From Nannocystis bainbridge (GTDB taxonomy: Bacteria > Myxococcota_A > Polyangia > Nannocystales > Nannocystaceae): 64,000 bases of DNA. A program made the position numbers and the translations under genes. The notes under the pieces are model-generated. The model made no database searches. It saw only the letters and a list, made by a program, of their open reading frames with translations, and was not told the origin of the DNA. Where the stretch lies: contig NZ_JAQNDL010000004.1 in assembly GCF_028368995.1 (NCBI RefSeq), positions 64,001 through 128,000 on the forward strand. Reading direction: 5' to 3'. Position 1 is the first letter of the stretch. Every line of letters begins with the position of its first letter. This document shows, piece after piece, positions 28,531 to 60,716 of the stretch.

Positions 28531-28672
28531 CGCCAGGACATGTCCTGGCGGTCATGCTGCTTTCGGGCACCGTGTCGCGCGGTCGCCGAGGCGCGCTCGG
28601 CGGCCATGGCTCAAGGGACATGCTCGAACGGGCATGTCCGCTCGGACATGCCCGTGTGGACATGCCTCGAAG
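28531..28672. repeat. cluster of GGACATGTCC-family units
   Basis: ccaggacatgtcctggcggtcatgc ... gggacatgctcgaacgggcatgtccgctcggacatgcccgtgtggacatgcc, in the convergent junction between the PBP and acyl-CoA dehydrogenase genes. Confidence 0.8.
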
Positions 28673-31299: not shown

Positions 31300-33354
31300 A
31301 TGGCGACGAACGAAGGGAGCCGCGACTCCGGCCAGGCTGGCGAGGATCGATCGGGGCCGCGGTTGACCGCGGTCATCGTCGATCCTCCGGACTCGCTCCC
31401 GTCGGCGCCCGTGGTCGTGCCCGGCGGCGACGACGATTTCGCGGAGGAGTACGAGGCGGCGCTCGAGAACCAAATCTCGGCGGCGCACTTCTCGATCGAG
31501 CTCGGTCGGGTATCCCAGGAGGTCGAGAGCGACGGAGCGCCGACCAGCGTGGACGGCGAGCCCCAGGGCGAGGACGTCGAGACCGTCGAGCGCACCGCGG
31601 CCCAGAGCCTCAGGGGCAAGGCGGCGGCCAAGCGTGACGGTCTGTTCGGCCAGGTGCTGGCCGACCGCTACCGGATCCTCGATCTCATCGGCAAGGGCGG
31701 GATGGGCAAGGTCTACCTCGCCGAGCACGTGGCGCTCGGCAAGAGGGTCGCCGTCAAGGTCCTGAACCCGGCCTATACCAACCGCCCCGATCAGGTGAAG
31801 CGGTTCCTCCGCGAGGCCCGGGCGGCGTCGACGATCGGCCACGAGAACGTCATCGACATCACCGACTTCGGGGCGATGCCCAACGGCCAGGTGTTCTTCG
31901 CCATGGAGCACCTGCAGGGCGACGACCTCGGCAAGATCCTCAAGAAGGGGCCGATGACGTGGGCGCGGGCCCGGCGGGTGATGCTGCAGATCTGCCGCGC
32001 GCTGCAGGCCGCCCACACCCACGGGATCATCCACCGGGACATGAAGCCGGAGAACTGCTTCCTGATCCAGCGCAACGGGATCCGCGACTTCGTCAAGGTG
32101 CTCGACTTCGGGATCGCCAAGTTCCTCGAGGAGAACCGCGACGGCGGCACCAACCCGCTGACGCAGGTGGGGGCGCTGATCGGCACGCCGGAGTACATGG
32201 CGCCCGAGCAGATCCACGGCGACCCGGCCGACCAGCGGATGGACATCTACGCGGTCGGCTGCATCCTCTATCAGCTGCTCACCGGCAACCTCCCGTTCAC
32301 CGACAAGACGATGTACGGGGTGCTGTCGCAGCAGGTGAACGCCAAGCCGGTGCCGCCGCGGCAGCTGGCGCCCGACGCCGACATCCCGGTCGAGGTCGAG
32401 GCGGTCATCCTCAAGGCGATGGAGAAGGACAAGACCCAGCGTTATCAGACGATGGGCGAGCTGATCGAGGCGATCGTCGCCACGCCGCGCGGGACCGCCG
32501 TCGACGCCGGGCGGACGACGACCAACCTCGAGGCGGCGGCCCAGGCGGCGCGCCTGGCCGTGGGCATGGGCATGGGCGGGTCGCTGAGCGCGGGCCCCAA
32601 CCCGGTGACGCCCGACGATTCGTTGCTGACGCAAGGACTCAGCAGCGCCTCGGGCCTGCGCCCGACGTCGCTGTCGCTGCCGTGGCGCGGCGGGACGATG
32701 GACGCGCAGATGCTGACGCGCCTGGTGTTCGGCCTCGGCGCGGTGGTGCTGGCGCTGGTGGTCGGGCTGGTGTGCGCGCTCAACCGCGGCGACGACCCGA
32801 AGCCGCCGGTCGACAAGCCGAGCGAGCTGGCGGCGGCCTCGGCGGGCGCGCCCGAGGCGGTGAAGCCGGTCGAGACGGCGCCCGAGACCCAGATCGAGGC
32901 CAAGCCGGACACGAAGGTCGAGCCGACGGCCGAGCCGAAGAAGCCGGACGACGAGCCGCCGATCGTGGTCGACGACGAGGCCAAGAAAGATCCGGCCAGC
33001 AAGAAGCCGGTCGAGGCCAAGAAGCCGCCGCCGGTCAAGAAGTCCGAGCCGGCCACGCCGAAGAACGAAGAGGCGTCGGCCAACTGGCCCGAGCTGCTGG
33101 GGCCGATGGAGCGCTCGCAGGCGCTGAAGAGCTATCGCGCCGAGTTCGAGACCTGCCGGACGATCAGCACCCCGAAGGGCAAGACCTACAAGCTGCGGCT
33201 CAAGGTCGACGGGCCCAAGGGTCGGGTCACCGACGCGACCTCCGACGACACGAGCGCGGAGGCGAAGTGCCTGGCGCGGGCCTTCAAGACCAAGGTCCGG
33301 TTCGTGAACTCTCGCAAGACGCCGCAAGAGTTCACGATCGTCGTGCCGCTCTGA
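31300..33354 (+). CDS. Ser/Thr protein kinase with TM segment
   Basis: GKGGMGKVY, HRDMKPEN, DFGIAK and APE motifs. TM helix VFGLGAVVLALVVGLV. Lys/Pro-rich tail. Confidence 0.85.
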   Translation: MATNEGSRDSGQAGEDRSGPRLTAVIVDPPDSLPSAPVVVPGGDDDFAEEYEAALENQISAAHFSIELGRVSQEVESDGAPTSVDGEPQGEDVETVERTAAQSLRGKAAAKRDGLFGQVLADRYRILDLIGKGGMGKVYLAEHVALGKRVAVKVLNPAYTNRPDQVKRFLREARAASTIGHENVIDITDFGAMPNGQVFFAMEHLQGDDLGKILKKGPMTWARARRVMLQICRALQAAHTHGIIHRDMKPENCFLIQRNGIRDFVKVLDFGIAKFLEENRDGGTNPLTQVGALIGTPEYMAPEQIHGDPADQRMDIYAVGCILYQLLTGNLPFTDKTMYGVLSQQVNAKPVPPRQLAPDADIPVEVEAVILKAMEKDKTQRYQTMGELIEAIVATPRGTAVDAGRTTTNLEAAAQAARLAVGMGMGGSLSAGPNPVTPDDSLLTQGLSSASGLRPTSLSLPWRGGTMDAQMLTRLVFGLGAVVLALVVGLVCALNRGDDPKPPVDKPSELAAASAGAPEAVKPVETAPETQIEAKPDTKVEPTAEPKKPDDEPPIVVDDEAKKDPASKKPVEAKKPPPVKKSEPATPKNEEASANWPELLGPMERSQALKSYRAEFETCRTISTPKGKTYKLRLKVDGPKGRVTDATSDDTSAEAKCLARAFKTKVRFVNSRKTPQEFTIVVPL

Positions 33355-34661
33355 TGCGGGTCGCGTTCAGCACGCTCGGCTGCCGCCTCAACCAGTTCGA
33401 GTCCGACGCCCTCGAACAGATGGCCCGCGCGGCCGGCCACACGGTCGTCGACGCCGAGGCCGCGCCCGAGGTCGTGGTCGTCAACACCTGCACGATCACC
33501 CACGAGGCCGACGCCGACGCCCGTCAGCACGTCCGCCGGGCCGCGCGTGCCGGGGCTCGCGTGGTGGTCACCGGTTGCTGGGCGACGGCCGCCCCGGCCG
33601 AGGCGGCGGCGCTGCCCGGAGTGGCGTTGGTGGTCGGCAACCGCGAGAAGGAGCGGCTCTTCGACATGCTCGGAGAGACATGTTCTGAAGAACATGTCCC
33701 GGAGATCCACGTGGCGCCGGTCGACCTGCTGCGGCGGGTCCGCGTGGCCCGGCTGCGCCCGGCCGCCGACCCGCGCCGCAGCCGGGCGTACCTGAAGATC
33801 CAGGACGGCTGCGACTACCGCTGCAGCTTCTGCGTGGTGCCGCAGGTGCGGGGTCGCAGCGCGAGCGTGGCGCCGGACGAGGTGCAGGCGCAGCTGCGGG
33901 AGCTCGTCGCGGCCGGGGTGCCGGAGGTCGTGCTGACCGGGGTGCACCTCGGGATCTACGGCCGCGACCTGCGGCCGCGCGCGACGCTCTCGGGGCTGGT
34001 AGAGGGCCTGCTGCCGCAGCTCGGCGCGGCGCGGCTGCGGCTTGGTTCGGTCGATCCGCACGAGGTCGACGAGCGGTTGATCGCGCTGCTCGCGAGCGAC
34101 CCGCGGCTGTGCCCGTACCTCCACTTGCCGGTGCAGAGCGGCGACGACGACACGCTGCGTCGGATGCGACGGGCGCACACCGCCGCCGACCTGCGGGCGC
34201 TGGTGCCTCGCCTGGCGGTCGCGGTGCCGGGCATCGGCGTGGGCACCGACGTGATCGTCGGCTTCCCCGGCGAGTCGGACGAGGCGTTCGCGGCCACCCA
34301 CGCGCTGCTGGCCGCGCTGCCGCTGGCGTACCTGCACGTGTTCGCTTACTCGCCGCGCGCGGGCACCGATGCGGCCTGTCTCTCGGGACAGATCGATGCG
34401 GCGGTCAAGCAGACGCGGGGTGCGGCGCTGCGGGCCCTGTCGGCGAGCAAGCAGCGGGCGTTCGCGGCCGGGCAGGTCGGTCGCACGCTGGCCGCCGTGA
34501 TCCACCGGACGCGCCACCGCCGGACGGGGCTGCTGGTCGGTCGCGCGGGCAACGGGCTGACGGTGCTGCTGCCGGGCGGCGAGGCGCTGCTGGGCCGGGC
34601 GGTGCACGTCGAGGTCGAGCGCGCCGAGGGGACGCTGGCGGTCGGTCGCGCGGTCGCGTGA
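33354..34661 (+). CDS. mtaB: tRNA methylthiotransferase MtaB-like (MiaB-like radical SAM)
   Basis: MTTase N-terminal domain, radical-SAM CDYRCSFC and a TRAM-like C-terminus. TGATG junction with the kinase gene. Confidence 0.85.
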   Translation: MRVAFSTLGCRLNQFESDALEQMARAAGHTVVDAEAAPEVVVVNTCTITHEADADARQHVRRAARAGARVVVTGCWATAAPAEAAALPGVALVVGNREKERLFDMLGETCSEEHVPEIHVAPVDLLRRVRVARLRPAADPRRSRAYLKIQDGCDYRCSFCVVPQVRGRSASVAPDEVQAQLRELVAAGVPEVVLTGVHLGIYGRDLRPRATLSGLVEGLLPQLGAARLRLGSVDPHEVDERLIALLASDPRLCPYLHLPVQSGDDDTLRRMRRAHTAADLRALVPRLAVAVPGIGVGTDVIVGFPGESDEAFAATHALLAALPLAYLHVFAYSPRAGTDAACLSGQIDAAVKQTRGAALRALSASKQRAFAAGQVGRTLAAVIHRTRHRRTGLLVGRAGNGLTVLLPGGEALLGRAVHVEVERAEGTLAVGRAVA

Positions 34662-44118: not shown

Positions 44119-45318
44119 TTACTCGTTCGGGGTCGTCACGCGCTGCGGCTGGACACGAGAGCCGCGGAGCATGTCCTGGAACGGGTTGTCGTCGCGCCAC
44201 ACGTCGCCGGCGAGCATGCTGATGAGGCCCTTGCGCAGCATCGGGTCGGGGGTGCGGGCGAAGAACAGGTGCGACACCATGCGCGTGTGATAAAAGCGGC
44301 GGATCAGCTGTTCGAAGCTGACGTAGGCGACTTCCATCGACGCGTGCACGGGGGCCATGAGATCGGCCGCACCCTCGCGCCCAGCGGCGAGCGCGGGGAC
44401 GAGGGCGTCGACGGTGCGCTCGGCGCCCAACATCGCCAGCGAGACGCCGGAGGAGAACACGGGATCGAGGAAGGCGCAGGCGTCGCCGACGCAGGCCCAG
44501 CGCGGGCCGGAGGGGCGGGTGTTCTTGTAGCTCCAGTTGCGGATCGTCCGCGTGTCGCTGCGCCGGGCCCCGGCGGTGAGGCGGCGACACAGCGGGGAGG
44601 CGGCGAGCGCGGCCTCGAAGGCGTCGTCGTCGAGCTTGCCACGCCACTTGACGAGGCCGACGCTGAGGCGCCCGCCGTGCATCGGGATCAGCCAGTGCCA
44701 GCCGTCCTCGACGATCAGGACCTTGATGTTGCCCTGGTCGCCGAGCTCCTGGCGGACGTCGGGGGCGAGGTCGTCGAAGTGACAGAAGACGGCGGCGCGC
44801 CCGAGCTCGTGCAGCGGGGCGATCGTGCGGGCGCCGCGGCCGAGCATGGCGTCCTGGCCGGTGCAGTCGAGGAGGAAGCGGGCCCGGTGCTCGCCGCGGT
44901 CGCTGGTGACGCGCACGTGATCGTCGGCGATGGCGATGTCGGTGACGCGCTCGCGGAAGCGGATGTCGGCGCCGCGGCTGACGGCGACGTCGGCGAGCAT
45001 CTTGTCGAAGGCGGCGCGGTCGACCTGCCAGGCGTGCGCGGGGGTGCCGTCGAGGCCGTCGGCGAAGCTGAAGAACGCGTACTCGCCGGTGCGCTCGTCG
45101 ATGAACTCGGCGCCCTGCTTGTACTGCCAGCGCGTGCGATCCATGGCGACGCCGAGGCGGGCGAAGATCGGCAGGTCGATCGGCAGCAGCGACTCGCCGA
45201 TGTGGAAGCGCGGGAACACGTCCCGGTCGAGCGTGACGGCCCGGACGCCCGCCTGCGCGAGCAAGTTGGCGGCGGTCGAGCCGGCCGGGCCGGCCCCGAC
45301 GATCAGGACGTCGTGCAT
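44119..45318 (-). CDS. FAD-dependent halogenase (flavin-dependent, Trp-halogenase family)
   Basis: GAGPAGS FAD motif, halogenase WxWxIP motif (GWHWLIPM) and FxDPxFSxG (FLDPVFSSG). Confidence 0.7.
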   Translation of the reverse strand: MHDVLIVGAGPAGSTAANLLAQAGVRAVTLDRDVFPRFHIGESLLPIDLPIFARLGVAMDRTRWQYKQGAEFIDERTGEYAFFSFADGLDGTPAHAWQVDRAAFDKMLADVAVSRGADIRFRERVTDIAIADDHVRVTSDRGEHRARFLLDCTGQDAMLGRGARTIAPLHELGRAAVFCHFDDLAPDVRQELGDQGNIKVLIVEDGWHWLIPMHGGRLSVGLVKWRGKLDDDAFEAALAASPLCRRLTAGARRSDTRTIRNWSYKNTRPSGPRWACVGDACAFLDPVFSSGVSLAMLGAERTVDALVPALAAGREGAADLMAPVHASMEVAYVSFEQLIRRFYHTRMVSHLFFARTPDPMLRKGLISMLAGDVWRDDNPFQDMLRGSRVQPQRVTTPNE

Positions 45319-45325
45319 GACCGGG

Positions 45326-46048
45326 TCATACCATGCCGCCGTTGATGCCGATCACCTGACCGGTGATGTACGCGGCGGCGTCGCTGGCGAGGAAGGCGAC
45401 CACGGCGGCGACTTCGGGGGCGGTGCCCAGCCGCTGCGCGGGGATCCGCGGCATGACGTGCTCGAGCGGGACGTCCTTGATCATGTCGGTGTCGACGAGG
45501 CCGGGGGCGACGGCGTTGACGGTGACGCCCTTGCGAGCGAGCTCGAGCGCGAGGGATTTTGTCGCGCCGATGACGCCGGCCTTGGCCGCGGCGTAGGCGA
45601 CCTGGCCGCGGTTGCCGAGCTGAGCCGAGACGGAGCTCATGGTGATGATCCGGCCCCATTTGCGCCGCACCATCGGCATGATCACGGGGCGGGTGACGTT
45701 GTAGAAGCCGCCGAGGCTGGTCCGAAGGACAGCCTCCCAGTCGGCCCGCTCGAGCGCGGGGAACGGGGCGTCGCGGGCGATGCCGGCGTTGTTGACGACG
45801 ACCCCGAGCGGGCGCGGGTCGGCCAGGATCGCGGCCATGGCGGCGTCGGCGGCCGCGTCGTCGCCGACGTCGAAGCGGCTCAGCACGGCCTCGCCGCCAG
45901 CGGCGCGGATCCGGGCGGCGACGGCCTCGGCGGCGGCGTCGTCGCTGCGATAGTTGAGGACGATCGGGTGACCGGCGGCGGCGAGGGCCTCCGCGATCGC
46001 GGCGCCGATCCCTCGACTGGCGCCGGTGACGAGCGCGCGCGGCTTCAT
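45326..46048 (-). CDS. fabG: 3-oxoacyl-ACP reductase (FabG-like SDR)
   Basis: TGASRGIG, NNAG and the catalytic YAAAK. Confidence 0.85.
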   Translation of the reverse strand: MKPRALVTGASRGIGAAIAEALAAAGHPIVLNYRSDDAAAEAVAARIRAAGGEAVLSRFDVGDDAAADAAMAAILADPRPLGVVVNNAGIARDAPFPALERADWEAVLRTSLGGFYNVTRPVIMPMVRRKWGRIITMSSVSAQLGNRGQVAYAAAKAGVIGATKSLALELARKGVTVNAVAPGLVDTDMIKDVPLEHVMPRIPAQRLGTAPEVAAVVAFLASDAAAYITGQVIGINGGMV

Positions 46049-46500
46049 GCGGGGCTCCCTGCGGGGGTGGTGACGGTGGTGACGGGGGTGGTGGTCACGA
46101 CGGAGAGGATGGCCTCGGCCAGCGGCTGACCGCGGCGGGTGACGGCGGCCCGGTACTCGGCCATGGCGCCGGCGAACACGCGGGTGGCGACGATCTGCAG
46201 CGGGTCGCCGACGGCCAGGTGTTCGGCGTGCAGCTCGAAGTTGCGGCAGGCGGCGATGAGGCCGACGGCCGGCGGCTGACCGCTGGCGCGGGCGCCGAGG
46301 CCGGCGAAGGCGGCGATCGCCTGGGCCATGTACTCGAGCAGGGCCGAGGCGTGGACGCGGCCGTCGACGAGGAACAGGTTGCCCGGGTGGACGACGGCGG
46401 CGCAGGTGATGCCGTCGTCGTCGGCGGCGACGACCTCGTCGAGCAGCAGCATCGGCGGGCGCTGCGGGACCAGCTCGGCCACCGGCGGGAAGGCGGTCAT
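46045..46500 (-). CDS. hotdog-fold 3-hydroxyacyl-ACP dehydratase (FabZ/ApeP-like)
   Basis: 151 aa, PPMLLLDEVV...HPGNLF hotdog dehydratase pattern. Overlapping start and stop with its neighbours. Confidence 0.65.
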   Translation of the reverse strand: MTAFPPVAELVPQRPPMLLLDEVVAADDDGITCAAVVHPGNLFLVDGRVHASALLEYMAQAIAAFAGLGARASGQPPAVGLIAACRNFELHAEHLAVGDPLQIVATRVFAGAMAEYRAAVTRRGQPLAEAILSVVTTTPVTTVTTPAGSPA

Positions 46501-47297
46501 GCGCCGGCTCCGAGCGCGCACTGCCAGCCGACCGCGAGGTGCGGCTCGAGGGCGACGCGCGCCGCGGCGCCGGCGGCCAGGGCGTCGAGCAGGGCGATCG
46601 CGGGGGCGCACGGGCTGGCGGCCAGGGCGGCCGGGATGACGCGTGGCCCCGGGGACATGTCGCAGGGGCCATGTTCGAGGCGACATGTCCTCGCGGGCAT
46701 GTCGCTCGGGCCAGCCGCGGACAGGGCGAAGGCGGCGGCGAACGGGTCCCAGCGGCGGCCGGCGGCCAGCGGCTCGGGCAGCGGCTCCTCGGCGATCACG
46801 AGCACGACGTCGCCCTCGCCGGCGGCGACCAGGGCGGCGCACTCGAGCAGGCCCATGGCGAGGGTCGAGGGCCCGGCCGAGATGGCGGCGTTGCCGGCCC
46901 GGTTGCCGGTGGCGATCGAGACGTAGCCGGCGGCCGTGTTGTGGACGCTGTTGTGGAATTTGGTCGGCGACAGCGGCTCGCCGGCGACCAGCAGGGCGGC
47001 GAGCAGGTCGAGGGTGGTCCGGATCTCGCCGTAGACGGAGCCGTAGACGAAGGTGGCGGCGGCGCGATCGAGGCCGCCGTCGTGCAGGGCCTGGGCGGCG
47101 ACCTCGGCGGCCATGCGGGTGAGCAGGCTGGTGCGCCGGCGCATCATCGGCGGCAGCAGCTCGGCTCGGGGGGCGGCGTCGGCGGAGGTGACCTGTCCTT
47201 CGGGACAGGCGTCGGGCCGGGCCCTCCAGGCGGCGACGTCGGGGTAGCCGGGCGACCAGAAGCCGAGGCCGCGGACGGAAAAGGCGAGCGCGCTCAT
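46497..47297 (-). CDS. beta-ketoacyl synthase N-terminal-domain protein (chain-length-factor-like)
   Basis: KS-like fold with no active-site Cys context, 266 aa, translationally coupled to the KS gene. Carries an in-frame repeat-encoded segment, DMPARTCRLEHGPCDMSPG. Confidence 0.65.
   Translation of the reverse strand: MSALAFSVRGLGFWSPGYPDVAAWRARPDACPEGQVTSADAAPRAELLPPMMRRRTSLLTRMAAEVAAQALHDGGLDRAAATFVYGSVYGEIRTTLDLLAALLVAGEPLSPTKFHNSVHNTAAGYVSIATGNRAGNAAISAGPSTLAMGLLECAALVAAGEGDVVLVIAEEPLPEPLAAGRRWDPFAAAFALSAAGPSDMPARTCRLEHGPCDMSPGPRVIPAALAASPCAPAIALLDALAAGAAARVALEPHLAVGWQCALGAGA
46652..46706. repeat. GGACATGTCC-family units inside a CDS, in frame
   Basis: gggacatgtcgcaggggccatgttcgaggcgacatgtcctcgcgggcatgtcgc sits within the CLF-like KS gene. 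Confidence 0.7.
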
Positions 47298-48475
47298 GCC
47301 GGGCCCCCGACGAGGACGCTGCAGTTGCTGCCGCCGAACGCGAACGAGTTGCTGAGGGCGGCGCGGGTCGGGACGTCGCGGCGGGCGGTGACGACGTCGA
47401 CGGCGAGGCTGTCGTCGAGCGGGTCGGCGCCGACGCTGGCGGGCAGGTAGCCGCCGGCGATGGCGTCGACGACGAAGGCGACCTCGGTGGCGCCGGCGGC
47501 CCCGAGCATGTGGCCGGTGTAGCCCTTGGTGGCGACCACGGCGGGCGCGCGGGCGCCGGCGAACACGGCCCGGATCGCGGCGCTCTCCATGCTGTCGTTC
47601 TGCTTGGTGCCGGTGCCGTGGGCGTTGACGTGGTCGACGTCGGCGGCGGACAGGCCGGCGTGTTGCAGGGCGCGCTCCATCGCCATGCGGGCGCCGAGGC
47701 CCTCGGGGTGCGGGCTGGTCATGTGGTAGGCGTCGGAGCTCTCGCCGACGCCGAGCAGGCGGGCCGGGCCTTCACCTGTCCTTTCGACCAGGAGCAGGGC
47801 GGCGCCCTCGCCGATGTTGATGCCGGCGCGCTCGCGCGAGAAGGGGCGACATGGCTTCGAGGACAGGACCTCGAGGCCAGCGAAGCCGCGCACGGTGAGG
47901 CGACACAGGCTGTCGACGCCGCCGACGAGCACGGCGTCGCAGAGGTCGGCGGCGAGCAGGCGCTGGGCCGAGGCGAACACCTTGGCGCTCGAGGAGCAGG
48001 CGGTCGAGACGACGTAGGCCGGGCCGCCGAGGCCGCCGCCGAGCACGCGCGCGAGGTGGAGGACGGCGTCGAGGGCGTGCGAGTGCTCGACGTCGTAGTG
48101 GGGCGGGAGGGCGCCGCCGTGGGCGTGAGCGTGGGCGTAAGCGGTCTCGCTGGCCTCGATGCCGCCGGTGCTGGTGCCGAGCACGATGGCGACCCGATGG
48201 GCGCCCCAGCGAGCGCTCGCGCGGGCGAGCGGGGCCTGCAGCTCGGCGAGGGCGACGGCGGCGATGCGCGCCTGGCGAGTGTCGCGGACGACGCCGAGAG
48301 ACGCGGGCAGCGGCGGCAGCGGGGTCGGGATGGCGCCGACGACCGCGTCGAGCTCGAACTCGGCCGGGCACGGGCCGAGGCCGGAGCGACCGGCCCGCAG
48401 GGCGGCGAGCACGGCGGCGGTGCTGTCGCCCATGCCGTTGCAGAGGGCCATGGCGGTGATCGGGAAGGGCTGCAT
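47294..48475 (-). CDS. beta-ketoacyl-ACP synthase (KAS I/II-like)
   Basis: Active-site VVSTACSSS, HGTGT and the Gly-rich C-terminus NSFAFGGSN. Confidence 0.85.
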   Translation of the reverse strand: MQPFPITAMALCNGMGDSTAAVLAALRAGRSGLGPCPAEFELDAVVGAIPTPLPPLPASLGVVRDTRQARIAAVALAELQAPLARASARWGAHRVAIVLGTSTGGIEASETAYAHAHAHGGALPPHYDVEHSHALDAVLHLARVLGGGLGGPAYVVSTACSSSAKVFASAQRLLAADLCDAVLVGGVDSLCRLTVRGFAGLEVLSSKPCRPFSRERAGINIGEGAALLLVERTGEGPARLLGVGESSDAYHMTSPHPEGLGARMAMERALQHAGLSAADVDHVNAHGTGTKQNDSMESAAIRAVFAGARAPAVVATKGYTGHMLGAAGATEVAFVVDAIAGGYLPASVGADPLDDSLAVDVVTARRDVPTRAALSNSFAFGGSNCSVLVGGPA

Positions 48476-49871: not shown

Positions 49872-52955
<3,084 letters not shown>

Positions 52956-52967
52956 GGCTGCGTGGTT

Positions 52968-53025
52968 CGAGGACATGTCGCATGAGACATGTTCGATAGA
53001 GCATGTTCAATGGGTCATGGGACAG
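52968..53025. repeat. cluster of GRCATGTYC units
   Basis: gaggacatgtcgcatgagacatgttcgatagagcatgttcaatgggtcatgggacag. Confidence 0.75.
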
Positions 53026-55583: not shown

Positions 55584-56290
55584 GCGCGAGCGACAACACC
55601 GCGGGCCCGGCCGTCGACACCGCCGCCCCGCCGCTGCCGGGCGGCCAGCGCCTGCGCCCCGGCGGCGCGGCGCGGCCCGGCTGCCGCGTGCTGGTGATCG
55701 ACAACTACGACTCGTTCACCTTCAACCTGGTGCAGTACCTGCTGCAGCTGGGGGCGGTGGTCGATGTCCACCGCAACGACGCGGTCCAGCTCGAGCAGGT
55801 GCTGGCCGACGCGCCGAGCCACATCGTCCTGTCCCCGGGGCCAGGTACGCCGGCCGACAGCGGGGTGTGCCAGGACCTGTGCCGCCGGCTGGCCGAGGCA
55901 GACGCGCCGGCGATCCCGGTGCTCGGGGTGTGCCTCGGCCACCAGACGATGTGCGAGGTGCTGGGCGCGCGGGTCGAGCGGGCCGGGCGGATCATGCACG
56001 GCAAGCTGTCGCCGATGCTGCACGACGGCACCGGGGTGTTCGCCGGGCTGCCGTCGCCGTTCATGGCCACGCGCTACCACAGCCTGGTCGCGGTCGAGAG
56101 CACGCTGCCGGCCTGCCTGATCCCGAACGCGCGCACCGACGCCGGCGAGCTGATGGGCGTGCGCCACGCGACGCGGCCGATGCACGGGGTCCAGTTCCAC
56201 CCGGAGTCGGTGCTCAGCGAGCACGGTCACGCGATGCTGCGCACCTTCCTCGAGATACATGTCCCATCGAACATGGCGGTAAAGACATGA
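55580..56290 (+). CDS. trpG: anthranilate synthase component II (glutamine amidotransferase)
   Basis: VIDNYDSFTFNLVQYL, GVCLGHQ and HPES. GTG start in a GTGA overlap with trpE, preceded by GAAGGAGG. Confidence 0.9.
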   Translation: MSASDNTAGPAVDTAAPPLPGGQRLRPGGAARPGCRVLVIDNYDSFTFNLVQYLLQLGAVVDVHRNDAVQLEQVLADAPSHIVLSPGPGTPADSGVCQDLCRRLAEADAPAIPVLGVCLGHQTMCEVLGARVERAGRIMHGKLSPMLHDGTGVFAGLPSPFMATRYHSLVAVESTLPACLIPNARTDAGELMGVRHATRPMHGVQFHPESVLSEHGHAMLRTFLEIHVPSNMAVKT

Positions 56291-57354
56291 CCGAAGGGGC
56301 AGGGGCAGGGGCGCTGCGGCGCGGGCTGGGCCGCCTGACCCGCGGCGAGGCGCTGGACGAGGCCGAGGCGCTGGCGATCTTCCGCGAGATCGTGGCCGGC
56401 GCGGCCGACCCGGCGCAGATCGGCGGGCTGCTGGTCGGACTGGCGATCCGCGGCGAGACGGCGGCGGTGATCGCGGGCGCGGTGCGGGCGATGCGAGAGG
56501 CGGTGGTGCCGGTGCCGCTGCGCGAGGCCGGGGCGATCGACACCTGCGGGACCGGCGGCAGCGGGGTGGCCCGGCGCAACGTGTCGACGGCGGTGGCGAT
56601 CGCGGCGGCGGCGTGCGGGGTCCGGGTGGCCAAGCACGGCAACCGCGGGATCTCGAGCCCGTGCGGCTCGGCGGACGTGCTGGCGGCGCTCGGCGTCGAC
56701 ATCACGGCCCCGCCCGAGCGCGTCGGCCGGTGCGTCGACGAGGTCGGCGTCGGCTTCATGTTCGCGCCGAACCTGCACCCGGCGATGCGCCACGCGGCCG
56801 GCCCGCGCAAGGCGCTCGGGCTGCGCACGCTGTTCAACCTGGTCGGGCCGATGTGCAACCCGGCGGGGGTGCGCCGGCAGGTGATCGGCGTGTTCGACCC
56901 GGGCAAGGTCGAGGCGATGGCGGCGGCCCTGGGCGCCCTCGGCAGCGAGCGGGTGTTCGTGGTCCACGGCCGGTTCGGGGGCGCGGACCGGCCCGGGATC
57001 GACGACCTCAGCCCCGAGGGCCCGAGCACGATCGCCGAGTGGCACCGCGGCGCGCTGCGCACGTACACGCTGCGCCCGGCCGACGCCGGACTGCCGGAGG
57101 TGCCGATCGCGGCGATCGCCGGCGACGACGCGGCCGGCAACGCGAGCGCGCTGCGGGCCCTGCTGGCCGGCGAGCCGGGGGCCTACCACACAAGTGTGCA
57201 GTACAGCGGCGCGCTGGCCCTGCTGGCGGCCGGGGACGACGATATCTCGACGCTGCCGGCCAAGGCGGGGGCGATCGGCGCGGCGCTCGAAGACGGGCGG
57301 GCCGCGGCGGTGCTCGACCGACTCGTCGCCGCCAGCCGCGCTGCGCTACCCTGA
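56287..57354 (+). CDS. trpD: anthranilate phosphoribosyltransferase
   Basis: DTCGTGG and NLVGPMCNPAG. ATGA overlap with trpG. Confidence 0.9.
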   Translation: MTEGAGAGALRRGLGRLTRGEALDEAEALAIFREIVAGAADPAQIGGLLVGLAIRGETAAVIAGAVRAMREAVVPVPLREAGAIDTCGTGGSGVARRNVSTAVAIAAAACGVRVAKHGNRGISSPCGSADVLAALGVDITAPPERVGRCVDEVGVGFMFAPNLHPAMRHAAGPRKALGLRTLFNLVGPMCNPAGVRRQVIGVFDPGKVEAMAAALGALGSERVFVVHGRFGGADRPGIDDLSPEGPSTIAEWHRGALRTYTLRPADAGLPEVPIAAIAGDDAAGNASALRALLAGEPGAYHTSVQYSGALALLAAGDDDISTLPAKAGAIGAALEDGRAAAVLDRLVAASRAALP

Positions 57355-58865: not shown

Positions 58866-58990
58866 GGACATTCTTTAAAAAGGGGCATGCCCGAAAGGGA
58901 ATGTCTGAATGAGCATGTCTGAAAGGGAATGTCTGAAAGGGCATGTCTGAAAGGGCATGCTCGTCTGCACATGTCCGGATGGGCATGAGG
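58866..58990. repeat. tandem array of GGRATGTCTGAAAG units, 14-bp period, 6-7 units
   Basis: ggggcatgcccgaaag ggaatgtctgaatg agcatgtctgaaag ggaatgtctgaaag ggcatgtctgaaag ggcatgctcgtctgcacatgtccggatgggcatgagg, located after trpF. Confidence 0.85.
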
Positions 58991-59243
58991 TTTGAACTGG
59001 GCGAGGGTCGGTCGTGGCGCGAGGCGAGTGGCGAGGTGCGATCGCGCGATGTGAACCACGAGCGAGGCGCCGAGTGCCGAGCGCCGAGGTGCGGTCGCGC
59101 GACATGAGCGGCGCGGGCGAGCGAAGGAGCCGCGAGCGAGGGGCGGGCTGCCGTTGTTCGAGGCGCCACGAGTCGATTGCAGGCGCGCTCGGCGGTCTGG
59201 GCCGCGCGAGACGGGCGGCGGGGGCTCGGGCTATGATCGGCGG

Positions 59244-60619: not shown

Positions 60620-60716
60620 CGGGACATTTTCGAGAGGACATGTCCGCGAACTAGTCATAAAGGACATGCTCGAGAGGACATGCTTTTACGAGCATGTCCT
60701 CTCGAGCATGTCCGAA
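60620..60716. repeat. GGACATGTCC-family cluster containing a 16-bp-stem perfect hairpin
   Basis: gggacattttcgagaggacatgtccgcg ... ctcgagaggacatgc-ttttac-gagcatgtcctctcgag-catgtccgaaactg, in the convergent junction between the Mur ligase and the LDLa lipoprotein genes. Confidence 0.8.

Follow-up and report, generated by a model that had tools for sequence, protein, structure and literature searches.

Repeats that lie in frame in bacterial genes are commonly taken for insertions of selfish DNA that the protein surface tolerates. A short palindromic array inside a chain-length-factor (CLF) gene of Nannocystis, a genus with large genomes that is rich in natural-product clusters, has the same look, and the question it raises is whether anything was inserted there at all. 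A first-pass annotation of the window, the 64,000-nucleotide stretch of DNA analyzed here, had proposed an in-frame, tolerated insertion in the style of Rickettsia palindromic elements (RPEs) that added ~19 amino acids (aa) to the protein. As set out below, the array sits on residues that all homologs possess, including a core β-strand, and its nucleotide motif is better conserved than the amino acids it encodes, which points to a different history.

The host gene and its operon

The array lies in a gene on the minus strand (46497..47297) that encodes a protein of 266 aa. The annotation of this product as a CLF-like ketosynthase holds up, as it matches Pfam PF13723 (Ketoacyl-synt_2; E=1.3e-38, 133.2 bits against a gathering cutoff of 25), and a Foldseek search with its AlphaFold (AF2) model (pLDDT 88.7) returned ApeC as the top match (6qsp_B, E = 2e-11, TM 0.69/0.76). 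Homologs named "beta-ketoacyl synthase chain length factor" in Nannocystis radixulma and N. pusilla are 85% and 83% identical, respectively. In its Pfam family, fold, and neighbors, the host gene resembles the ApeC/ApeO pair of aryl-polyene clusters (PDB 6QSP). The likeness is confined to the host gene; the Xenorhabdus ApeC, at 22% identity to the CLF of the window, carries no array. By homology to ApeO:ApeC, the product would form a heterodimer with its partner ketosynthase (KS) and control chain length.

The surrounding genes, all on the minus strand, are tightly packed. The gene of the ApeO-like partner KS (47294..48475; PF00109/PF02801) keeps its synteny at every orthologous locus, and its stop codon overlaps the start of the CLF gene (ATGA). 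The start of an ApeP-like dehydratase gene (46045..46500; PF22817) overlaps the CLF stop, and the operon therefore has no intergenic room. A FabG-type ketoreductase gene (45326..46048; PF13561/PF00106) belongs to the same operon, and a FAD-dependent halogenase-like gene (44119..45318; PF04820) is the last in the block. The neighborhood of KS, ApeP-like dehydratase, and FabG around the CLF gene is kept in 12 loci. We found no promoter or terminator within 45800-47600.

A four-unit array read in frame

The array occupies 46650..46707 and codons 197-216 (PSDMPARTCRLEHGPCDMSP) of the 266-codon open reading frame. Its CATG cores lie at 46656, 46670, 46684, and 46698 on the plus strand, at a spacing of exactly 14/14/14 bp. 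The coding strand reads gcGACATGCCCgcgagGACATGTCGcctcGAACATGGCCcctgcGACATGTCCccgg, translated as ...PSDMPARTCRLEHGPCDMSPG..., and re-reading confirmed the strand, frame, sequence, and translation previously given for 46652-46706. Repeat units are indeed present, but there are four centered on CATG, not the three consecutive ones described before. The reading frame is continuous, with no stops in the array and with homology in the same frame on either side. The TC..EH peptide pattern remarked on earlier has the full form DM..TC..EH..DM, and it arises because 14-bp-phased units are read in three successive frames. A tryptic peptide across the array-encoded segment would span TCR/LEHGPCDMSPGPR.

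The array belongs to a dispersed family with a 14-bp period

The repeat unit is a 10-bp palindrome, GGRCATGYCC, followed by a 4-nt spacer (consensus rrGGR-CATG-YCC, period 14 bp). Neighboring units are mutually complementary and able to form hairpins. Across the window, chains of at least three CATG cores number eight at period 14 and zero at all remaining periods in the range 8-23, and a relaxed definition gives 15 arrays. The sequence GACATGTC occurs 12 times in the window against 0.54 expected, and ACATGTCS occurs 34 times against 2.3 expected. Eleven of 12 perfect units lie outside genes, in the noncoding ~10% of the window. The CLF array is a member of this family. Its in-register identity to the intergenic arrays (including 28605-28672) is 56-68%, compared with 30% for random sequence, which bears out the earlier remark that it resembles intergenic clusters such as 28614-28672. 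With 279 CATG sites in 64 kb, a chain of four at one fixed spacing is expected ~2e-5 times by our own arithmetic, and a chance origin of the resemblance is excluded.

The extragenic arrays occur in convergent gaps and directly past stop codons, mostly at gene 3' ends, and their orthologous positions are conserved. Our reference array, with five units (28599..28670), lies between two convergent genes, comes to within 4 bp of the stop codon of the one on the minus strand, and folds as RNA with z = -3.6 and -4.6, one value per strand. The largest in the window (58883..58993) has seven relaxed units and then four exact ones. RNA folding of a four-unit array (60659..60716) gave a perfect 24-bp hairpin at 60662-60713 in which the spacers are complementary too (-49.2 kcal/mol, z = -12). 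A further array (52968..53025) stands directly past the stop of a Ser/Thr kinase gene and has orthologous counterparts, with differing unit numbers, at loci L081, L082, and L086. Fold z-scores overall range from -2.4 to -12, the CLF array giving -3.7 for the plus strand and -2.4 for the mRNA strand. Extragenic arrays grow via tandem duplication, reaching up to eight identical 14-mers at loci L096 and L116. The comparisons drew on the window and on orthologous loci of 2.4-21 kb.

Several other descriptions of the family were considered and set aside. A phage or mobile origin was rejected, as the three-unit pattern had 0 hits in the viral contigs searched. A gathering-threshold scan of the whole window against Rfam also gave 0 hits. 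Arrays inside coding sequence are not the common state: a coding-frame filter flagged only 3 of the 48 exact arrays of at least three units from all loci (one in an MtaB gene and two in CLF orthologs), although it narrowly missed the CLF array of the window itself, and it flagged 0 of 33 metagenomic arrays. On the plus strand, central spacer positions hold 22 A against 11 T, which is suggestive and not significant; we did not read an array orientation from this asymmetry, which within one window is also inseparable from replication direction.

Homologs without the array carry an equivalent segment

The insertion proposal could be checked by looking for a gap of about 19 aa in homologous proteins. 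There is no gap at the array in a 34-sequence alignment (A1), and in a hidden Markov model (HMM) built from 48 distant homologs, residues 4-261 of the window protein align end to end with zero insert states at 197-216. In all, ~80 homologs were examined, and none shows an element-sized gap at the array site. Array-free homologs carry an equivalent segment instead, such as TLARVGALRRGRG at L006 and ARARLSGLRRGTA at L011, whose loci have no trace of an array. The first-pass annotation had itself named this outcome as the one that would speak against an RPE-like insertion, and for that reason the insertion reading fails. Between conserved anchors, the segment measures 30-31 residues in array-free outgroups, 34 in the window, and 32-36 in array bearers. 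The residues A, R203, L207, and G210 are common to the window and the outgroups (ARTCRLEHG versus ARLSGLRRG), and "PAR" is also found in the neighboring KS paralog.

A second check asked whether the segment forms a surface loop. The AlphaFold model instead places RTCRLEHGP (residues 203-211) in a confident β-strand (pLDDT ~93) paired with the strand at 186-193. In the thiolase half-fold, these residues are thus predicted to belong to the β4-β5 hairpin and not to an extra loop. Units 2 and 3 encode the β5 strand, which is present in all homologs of the 48-homolog HMM.

Core codons are retained at the nucleotide level

The cores of the CLF array are written in rare codons, AGG ACA TGT and GAA CAT. 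Within their synonymous sets, ACA accounts for 2.1%, TGT for 8.2%, GAA for 5.2%, CAT for 8.6%, and AGG for 3.6%, and the choice of AGG ACA TGT GAA CAT, with the amino acids given, has a probability of ~3e-7 by codon usage. These rare A/T-ending codons are retained at the nucleotide level. Third positions with A or T are kept in 14 of 16 ortholog comparisons for the cores and in 139 of 435 for the background (Fisher p = 1e-5); counted by column, they are fully kept in 3/4 core columns versus 11/62 elsewhere (p = 0.03), both statistics coming from four codon columns in related sequences, which are not independent samples. Amino acid identity among orthologs is 65% in the array segment versus 85% in the rest of the gene, and the nucleotide cores persist through residue changes (E to V, R to T, P to S). 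The E-to-V change from GAA to GTA, itself a codon with a share of 1.0%, preserves "A CAT G". The peptide RTCRL is conserved across the clade. In 50 kb of confident coding sequence, GRCATGYC occurs at five sites, three of them within the CLF gene, and the KS gene also bears conserved unit-like rare-codon patches.

The array is found at the same codons in 12 orthologs, and every Nannocystis ortholog has it there. Among the 12, cores survive in 9/12 for unit 1, 8/12 for unit 2, 5/12 for unit 3, and 4/12 for unit 4, with erosion running from A/T to G/C. On a neighbor-joining (NJ) tree, the distribution can be explained only if units 1-4 were all present in the Nannocystis ancestor. A sister clade still shows units in decay; such units are seen at L090-L092 and L003. 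ACA TGT is kept in L091 and L092, whose loci have almost no other arrays. Judged from these orthologs, the array is old and vertically inherited and not a recent arrival. Across the tree it mostly erodes and seldom regenerates, as would be expected no less under purifying selection on a functional site than under self-correction.

Two other arrays overlap coding sequence

A second in-frame array, with three units (33659..33702, plus strand), encodes part of the MtaB linker, FDMLGETCSEEHVPE (codons 102-117 of 33354-34661). In N. pusilla MtaB, SEE has become GKG, yet ACA TGT and CAT GTC are kept, and the segment shows an A-rich, array-type spacer plus a perfect GGACATGTCC unit. In this comparison, the MtaB array appears to behave like the CLF array, with amino acids changing while the nucleotide cores stay. 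A three-unit array on the plus strand (56252..56295) makes up the last ~11 codons of TrpG and includes both the stop codon of trpG and the start codon of trpD (ACATGA). L088 carries a single unit at this junction. Three are present in the window, L081, and L082, together with 24 additional bp, and the TrpG tail has gained eight codons.

Origin and maintenance of the array

We propose that existing codons of the CLF gene were rewritten long ago into a Nannocystaceae palindrome array, which now serves as protein code and DNA palindrome at once, and we give this reading a probability of about 55%. In terms of the thiolase half-fold, the array covers the turn, the β5 strand, and the loop after it. 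Every ApeC-type CLF possesses these codons, which argues that pre-existing codons were rewritten and no block was added. The rewriting would date from an ancestor that Nannocystis shares with its sister clade, and it would have altered the length by just ~+2 to +5 codons net. Since then the segment would have been in dual use, with CATG cores that are maintained as DNA despite strong GC3 pressure and amino acids that drift.

As to how the rewriting came about, we favor local hairpin-templated copying, that is, quasi-palindrome template switching together with small slippage events. It may have started from a unit present by chance, for instance RTC = (G)G ACA TGT C, and only protein-compatible outcomes, in a hairpin tolerant of indels, would have survived. 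The one unit of L088 versus three elsewhere at trpG/trpD supports seeded local growth, and quasi-palindrome template switching is an established and largely length-neutral mutational mechanism (PMC7202029). Local templating alone falls short as an explanation of the core that is common to all arrays. Maintenance of the array may be due to templated correction of this kind, or to selection for the role that the extragenic arrays have as DNA or RNA hairpins. A broader proposition, which we hold only tentatively, is that Nannocystaceae extragenic arrays can write over coding sequence where it stands, with no gain in length, and then persist for very long as dual code, through either a needed cis-element or hairpin-templated regeneration.

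The best-surviving alternative, to which we give perhaps one chance in a few, is that the array is a selected cis-element, either a set of binding sites for a putative Nannocystaceae protein or an RNA/DNA hairpin signal, needed in an operon whose ATGA overlaps leave zero spacer, and that it was built by point mutations under ordinary selection in a tolerant segment. The longevity of the rare A/T-ending core codons, including ACA TGT in L091 and L092, would fit this, as would the conserved positions of the extragenic arrays, mostly 3' to genes or between convergent ones, the strong hairpin potential, and the unit-like patches in the KS gene. However, the operon region contains no promoter- or terminator-like site and the window no Rfam family. 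RNAalifold on eight orthologous 60-mers found trivial core pairing only and zero compensatory pairs, a point against our own proposal too; taken alone, this neither supports nor refutes a conserved RNA structure. Units 1, 3, and 4 are freely lost in several lineages. A REP-like role at the mRNA 3' end or as a stabilizer would moreover truncate the CLF message.

Insertion could be rescued by supposing that a mobile palindromic element of ~56 bp entered the ancestral CLF gene and was tolerated, and that the length was regained through a later loss of about as much sequence. We regard this as improbable, the missing gap having already largely refuted insertion. The family is dispersed and otherwise extragenic, array bearers exceed the outgroups by 2-5 aa, MtaB bearers are 4 aa longer, the TrpG tail has its additional codons, and RPEs provide a precedent for palindromic elements in frame (PMC10969869). 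The β4-β5 turn is also indel prone, with extra insertions of 12-13 aa in L086 and L090. Nevertheless, ancestral residues are conserved around a universal strand that units 2 and 3 encode, neither target-site duplications nor terminal repeats are present, no presence/absence polymorphism is seen among orthologs, and the viral contigs hold zero copies.

Conserved rare-codon clusters are a known phenomenon, and RTCRL is conserved as a peptide, but the idea that selection sees only the amino acids (D-M, T-C, E-H) or a rare-codon pause cluster, the likeness to the repeat being incidental, is essentially refuted by the phase statistics and is further opposed by the codon-choice probability, by the residue changes beneath intact cores, and by the recurrence of the pattern with other amino acids in N. 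pusilla MtaB, so that we regard it as very improbable.

Comparison with known repeat families

RPEs are dispersed palindromic repeats translated in frame within otherwise normal, conserved proteins (PMC10969869). The CLF array shares with them the dispersal of its family and its read-through in an intact conserved protein. RPEs, at ~100-150 bp, add a block of residues that orthologs lack, typically at the protein surface; the CLF array, by contrast, is made of 14-bp units, shows neither an ortholog gap nor a surface appendage, lies over a core β-strand, and is fixed and ancient, not lineage specific. The array family also resembles the REP/BIME elements of E. coli and other proteobacteria, which are short imperfect palindromes, overwhelmingly extragenic and often past stops or between convergent genes, in tandem clusters whose neighboring copies can pair. 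It differs in its far shorter unit (10-bp palindrome plus 4-nt spacer) and strict 14-bp period, and it lacks the 5' GTAG/GTGG head of the ~20-40-nt REP units. REPs are not known to have been kept within a gene over the codons of a structural β-strand. Mycobacterial MIRUs, with units of 46-101 bp, are junction tandem repeats that overlap flanking stop and start codons, as the trpG/trpD array does, whereas the CLF array is gene internal and away from any junction.

HIP1 (GCGATCGC) of cyanobacteria is a short palindrome conserved at orthologous sites beyond codon-usage expectation, which arises by substitution, not insertion, and coexists with coding function (PMC5861425, PMC4390886). The CLF array shows the same site-specific conservation across orthologs beyond codon expectation. 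HIP1, however, is hyperabundant in genes as single octamers, whereas in-gene copies of the array are rare and phased. Synonymous-codon shuffles of the coding sequence rejected a general, HIP1-like enrichment in genes (CATG z = -1.3; GRCATGYC 5 versus 4.0 expected); ACATGT, at 12 versus 6.3 expected, is in excess largely because of the two in-CDS arrays.

If the nucleotide-level constraint is real, it is the sign either of a function exerted as DNA or RNA or of a mutational process that maintains itself, in a Nannocystis repeat family so far undescribed. The locus would then be a compact, testable case of dual coding, in which synonymous changes to ~five codons would tell the role of the protein apart from that of the motif. 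It would also be a warning to annotators and for evolutionary analyses that repeat biology may have shaped rare-codon patches and fast-evolving loops in Nannocystis genomes. Overwriting in place, if true, would be a form of repeat-driven protein sequence change distinct from the insertion of mobile elements.

Crude start calls also put several gene starts in the window on array ATGs (52989, 58186, and 60694), and at least the one at 52989 is probably too early, judging by the gene calls of L081.

Host gene and array

The ORF at 46497-47297 (minus strand, 266 aa) encodes an ApeC-type chain-length factor (CLF; Pfam PF13723, E = 1.3e-38). Among solved structures, its sequence is closest to 7f28_A and 6qsp_B, and its AlphaFold model (pLDDT 88.7, pTM 0.90) is best matched structurally by ApeC of the ApeO:ApeC complex (6qsp_B, TM 0.69/0.76). 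CLF forms a translationally coupled block with a ketosynthase (KS, 47294-48475), an ApeP-like dehydratase (46045-46500), FabG (45326-46048), and a halogenase (44119-45318), and this block is syntenic in each related locus retrieved. The window is 72% G+C, and its proteins are closest to those of Nannocystis, with CLF 85% identical to that of N. radixulma and 83% to that of N. pusilla, and MtaB 92% identical to that of N. punicea.

Codons 197-216 of CLF read gcGACATGCCCgcgagGACATGTCGcctcGAACATGGCCcctgcGACATGTCCccgg on the coding strand, translated as PSDMPARTCRLEHGPCDMSP. The first-pass annotation had counted three units here; we find four CATG-centred units, spaced at exactly 14/14/14 bp. Because 14 = 15 - 1, the units are read in three successive frames, giving DM (GAC ATG), TC (ACA TGT), and EH (GAA CAT G), and then DM again, and this rotation explains the TC..EH peptide pattern that had been remarked on.

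A family of 14-bp-phased arrays

The kinship proposed earlier between the CLF stretch and the intergenic clusters is borne out, with in-register identity to extragenic arrays of 56-68% (random, 30%), and they belong to one real repeat family. Of the periods from 8 to 23, only 14 gave chains of at least three CATG in the window, eight in all, and GACATGTC was observed 12 times where 0.54 would be expected. Units follow the consensus rrGGR-CATG-YCC, with a 4-nt spacer. Eleven of the 12 perfect units lie in non-coding DNA, which makes up ~10% of the window; they usually sit directly past stop codons and between convergent genes. The sole perfect unit in confident coding sequence of the window is a single GGACATGTCC at 50642-50651, at about codon 258 of a Ser/Thr kinase gene.

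Adjacent units pair, with folding z-scores of -2.4 to -12 across the arrays folded. At 60662-60713, four units fold into a perfect 24-bp hairpin (-49 kcal/mol, z = -12); the spacers are also complementary (GAGA/TCTC), and the layout suggests that a two-unit arm was duplicated in inverted orientation. No array in the window is longer than that at 58883-58993 (~7 relaxed and 4 exact units, with a recurring spacer TCTGAAAGGG), which is flanked by two genes on the same strand. From 9820 to 60716, nearly all arrays are rich in A at the central spacer positions of the plus strand (22 A versus 11 T), regardless of which way the neighbouring genes run. The skew, which does not reach significance in a single window, may reflect an array orientation linked to replication and not to transcription.

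Other Nannocystis genomes carry arrays at orthologous positions with varying unit number, as at the kinase 3' end, which bears an array in the window and in the related loci L081, L082, and L086. A search of metagenomes for three perfect units returned 35 stretches, 33 of them on contigs of 67-77% G+C. Two of the scanned contigs (L096:10-130 and L116:4002-4120; 71-73% G+C) hold eight identical 14-mers (GGGGCATGTCCTGC x8), indicating that the unit has recently expanded in tandem; extragenic arrays thus grow via tandem duplication. Two others of ~60% G+C (L111 and L122) consist mostly of another repeat, of 7/14-bp GGGGCATGCCCCAT type, which is probably an unrelated satellite that happens to fit the search pattern. 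The three-perfect-unit pattern had no match in viral contigs, the array repeat had no Rfam family, and we found no description of the array family in the literature searched. As a whole, the family behaves like REP/BIME elements, but its unit is much shorter and strictly phased.

The CLF array overlies codons that its homologues have

The CLF stretch had been read as an in-frame insertion adding ~19 aa, in the manner of Rickettsia palindromic elements (RPEs). An alignment of 34 sequences showed no gap at the array site in any homologue. In an HMM built from 48 distant homologues only (at most 52% identity, from Anaeromyxobacteraceae, Sandaracinaceae, and Gamma- and Betaproteobacteria), positions 2-258 cover CLF residues 4-261, with the array segment aligned to match states. 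Outgroups without the array carry an equivalent segment of 30-31 residues between the anchors …FALSA and …PCA, compared with 34 in the window and 32-36 among array bearers. The outgroup sequence A-R-L-S-G-L-R-R-G matches A-R-T-C-R-L-E-H-G, with A, R, L, and G in common, and 'PAR' is common to the segment and the adjacent KS paralogue (…GEGPARLLG…). The suggested surface loop is not what the model predicts: residues 186-193 pair with 203-211 in a β-hairpin, and RTCRLEHGP is a confident strand (pLDDT ~93). This hairpin is the β4-β5 pair of thiolase-fold ketosynthases, so units 2-3 encode a core strand and units 1 and 4 the flanking loops. Judged from the alignment and the predicted fold, the array is not an insertion, and the equivalent segment in outgroups is the finding that the first-pass annotation had named as refuting one. 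It resembles RPEs in outward form only and lacks both of their defining features, the gap and the appendage.

Age, erosion, and probable nucleotide-level constraint

In codon alignments, 12 orthologues (58-87% aa identity) have the array at identical codons. Cores survive as a mosaic (unit 1 in 9/12, unit 2, ACATGT, in 8/12, unit 3 in 5/12, and unit 4 in 4/12), and a neighbor-joining tree built with the array segment left out requires all four units in the Nannocystis ancestor. The direction of erosion is from A/T to G/C (ACATGT to ACCTGT three times, CATG to CAGG three times). In the sister clade L090-L092, unit 2 and/or unit 1 persists and the remaining units have decayed, and a deeper MAG (L003, 48% identity) has a decayed 14-bp-phased triplet, ATG TCC AAG GAG ACC TGT TCC AAC AAT CAT GTC; no array trace was found at CLF in the compared loci L001, L006, L009, L011, and L013. 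A second array-like stretch of two units, AGA CAT GTC CTC GGG GAC AGG TCT, occurs near the 5' end of the gene in the L090 clade (L090:10073-10096, CLF codons ~25-32), and its peptide RHV..GD is common to the homologues P0021, P0023, P0030, and P0040.

Genome GC3 is ~95%, and the core codons make up small shares of their synonymous sets (ACA 2.1%, TGT 8.2%, GAA 5.2%, CAT 8.6%, AGG 3.6%, GTA 1.0%). Glu changed to Val in three lineages via GAA to GTA, preserving 'A CAT G'. The A/T third positions of the window were retained in 14/16 comparisons within the array versus 139/435 (32%) in a background of 7 genes with 2-4 orthologues each (Fisher p = 1e-5), and a column-wise count gave full retention in 3/4 array columns versus 11/62 (p = 0.03), both from few columns and related sequences. 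Amino acid identity was 65% in the array and 85% outside it. These results are indicative of, though they do not prove, constraint on the array cores at the nucleotide level. The case is of moderate interest, as a repeat that overlies a core structural element is conserved better as DNA than as protein.

Arrays in other coding sequences

An MtaB gene (33354-34661) has three in-frame units at 33659-33702, reading FDMLGETCSEEHVPE, in the linker that joins its UPF0004 and radical-SAM domains. This array is common to close Nannocystis relatives. Relative to other Nannocystaceae MtaB proteins, those with the array have 4 additional aa; more distant relatives read FALLGEPAAE--RVHV. In N. pusilla, SEE has become GKG, yet ACA TGT and CAT GTC are kept, together with an A-rich spacer of the array type and one perfect GGACATGTCC unit. 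At 56252-56295, three units form the last ~11 codons of a TrpG-like amidotransferase (tail IHVPSNMAVKT*, with the rare codons ATA, CCA, and GTA), the last unit, ACATGA, containing the trpG stop and the trpD start. This junction has one unit in the related locus L088 (…FLAMGT*) and three, with 24 additional bp, in the window, L081, and L082. Arrays can thus grow from a seed unit within coding sequence, with small in-frame length changes.

Such in-CDS arrays are rare: a coding-frame filter, which narrowly missed the window's own CLF array, flagged 3/48 exact arrays across all loci (one MtaB, two CLF orthologues), and the unit motif showed no general enrichment in genes. HIP1 shows similar in-gene conservation at single sites (PMC5861425), but the Nannocystis motif is without genome-wide enrichment in genes.

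Origin and maintenance

The best-supported reading is that existing codons were long ago rewritten in place into the array, which was then inherited vertically with its cores kept at the DNA level. As origin we favour hairpin templating, in which neighbouring quasi-palindromic units would be copied by template switching, a mutational mechanism described between quasi-palindromes (PMC7202029), along with small slippage events. The seed would be a chance unit, for example (G)G ACA TGT C, which encodes RTC; copying of this kind would be largely length-neutral and would naturally yield a period made up of a 10-bp stem and a 4-nt loop.

On maintenance, the main rival is that selection preserves a cis-function in an operon without intergenic room; the erosion in several lineages, and the survival of unit 2 where genomes have few arrays, fit this at least as well. 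A REP-like role at RNA 3' ends seems unlikely within a reading frame; a DNA-level role (protein binding or topology) would be compatible with the site. An ancient insertion with a compensating deletion is possible but weaker; the β4-β5 turn is prone to indels, but this route must account for the conserved ancestral residues and strand. Chance, or selection purely at the protein level, is excluded by the phase statistics and codon choice.

It is also worth pointing out two rare-codon patches in the KS gene, at 47849-47854 (codons 208-209, CCA TGT CGC) and 47771-47785 (codons 231-235, GAA AGG ACA GGT GAA). Both are kept in four Nannocystis orthologues and absent in L090 and L091, and they look like single or decayed units. 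The second lies in the KS β4-β5 turn, the position paralogous to the CLF array.
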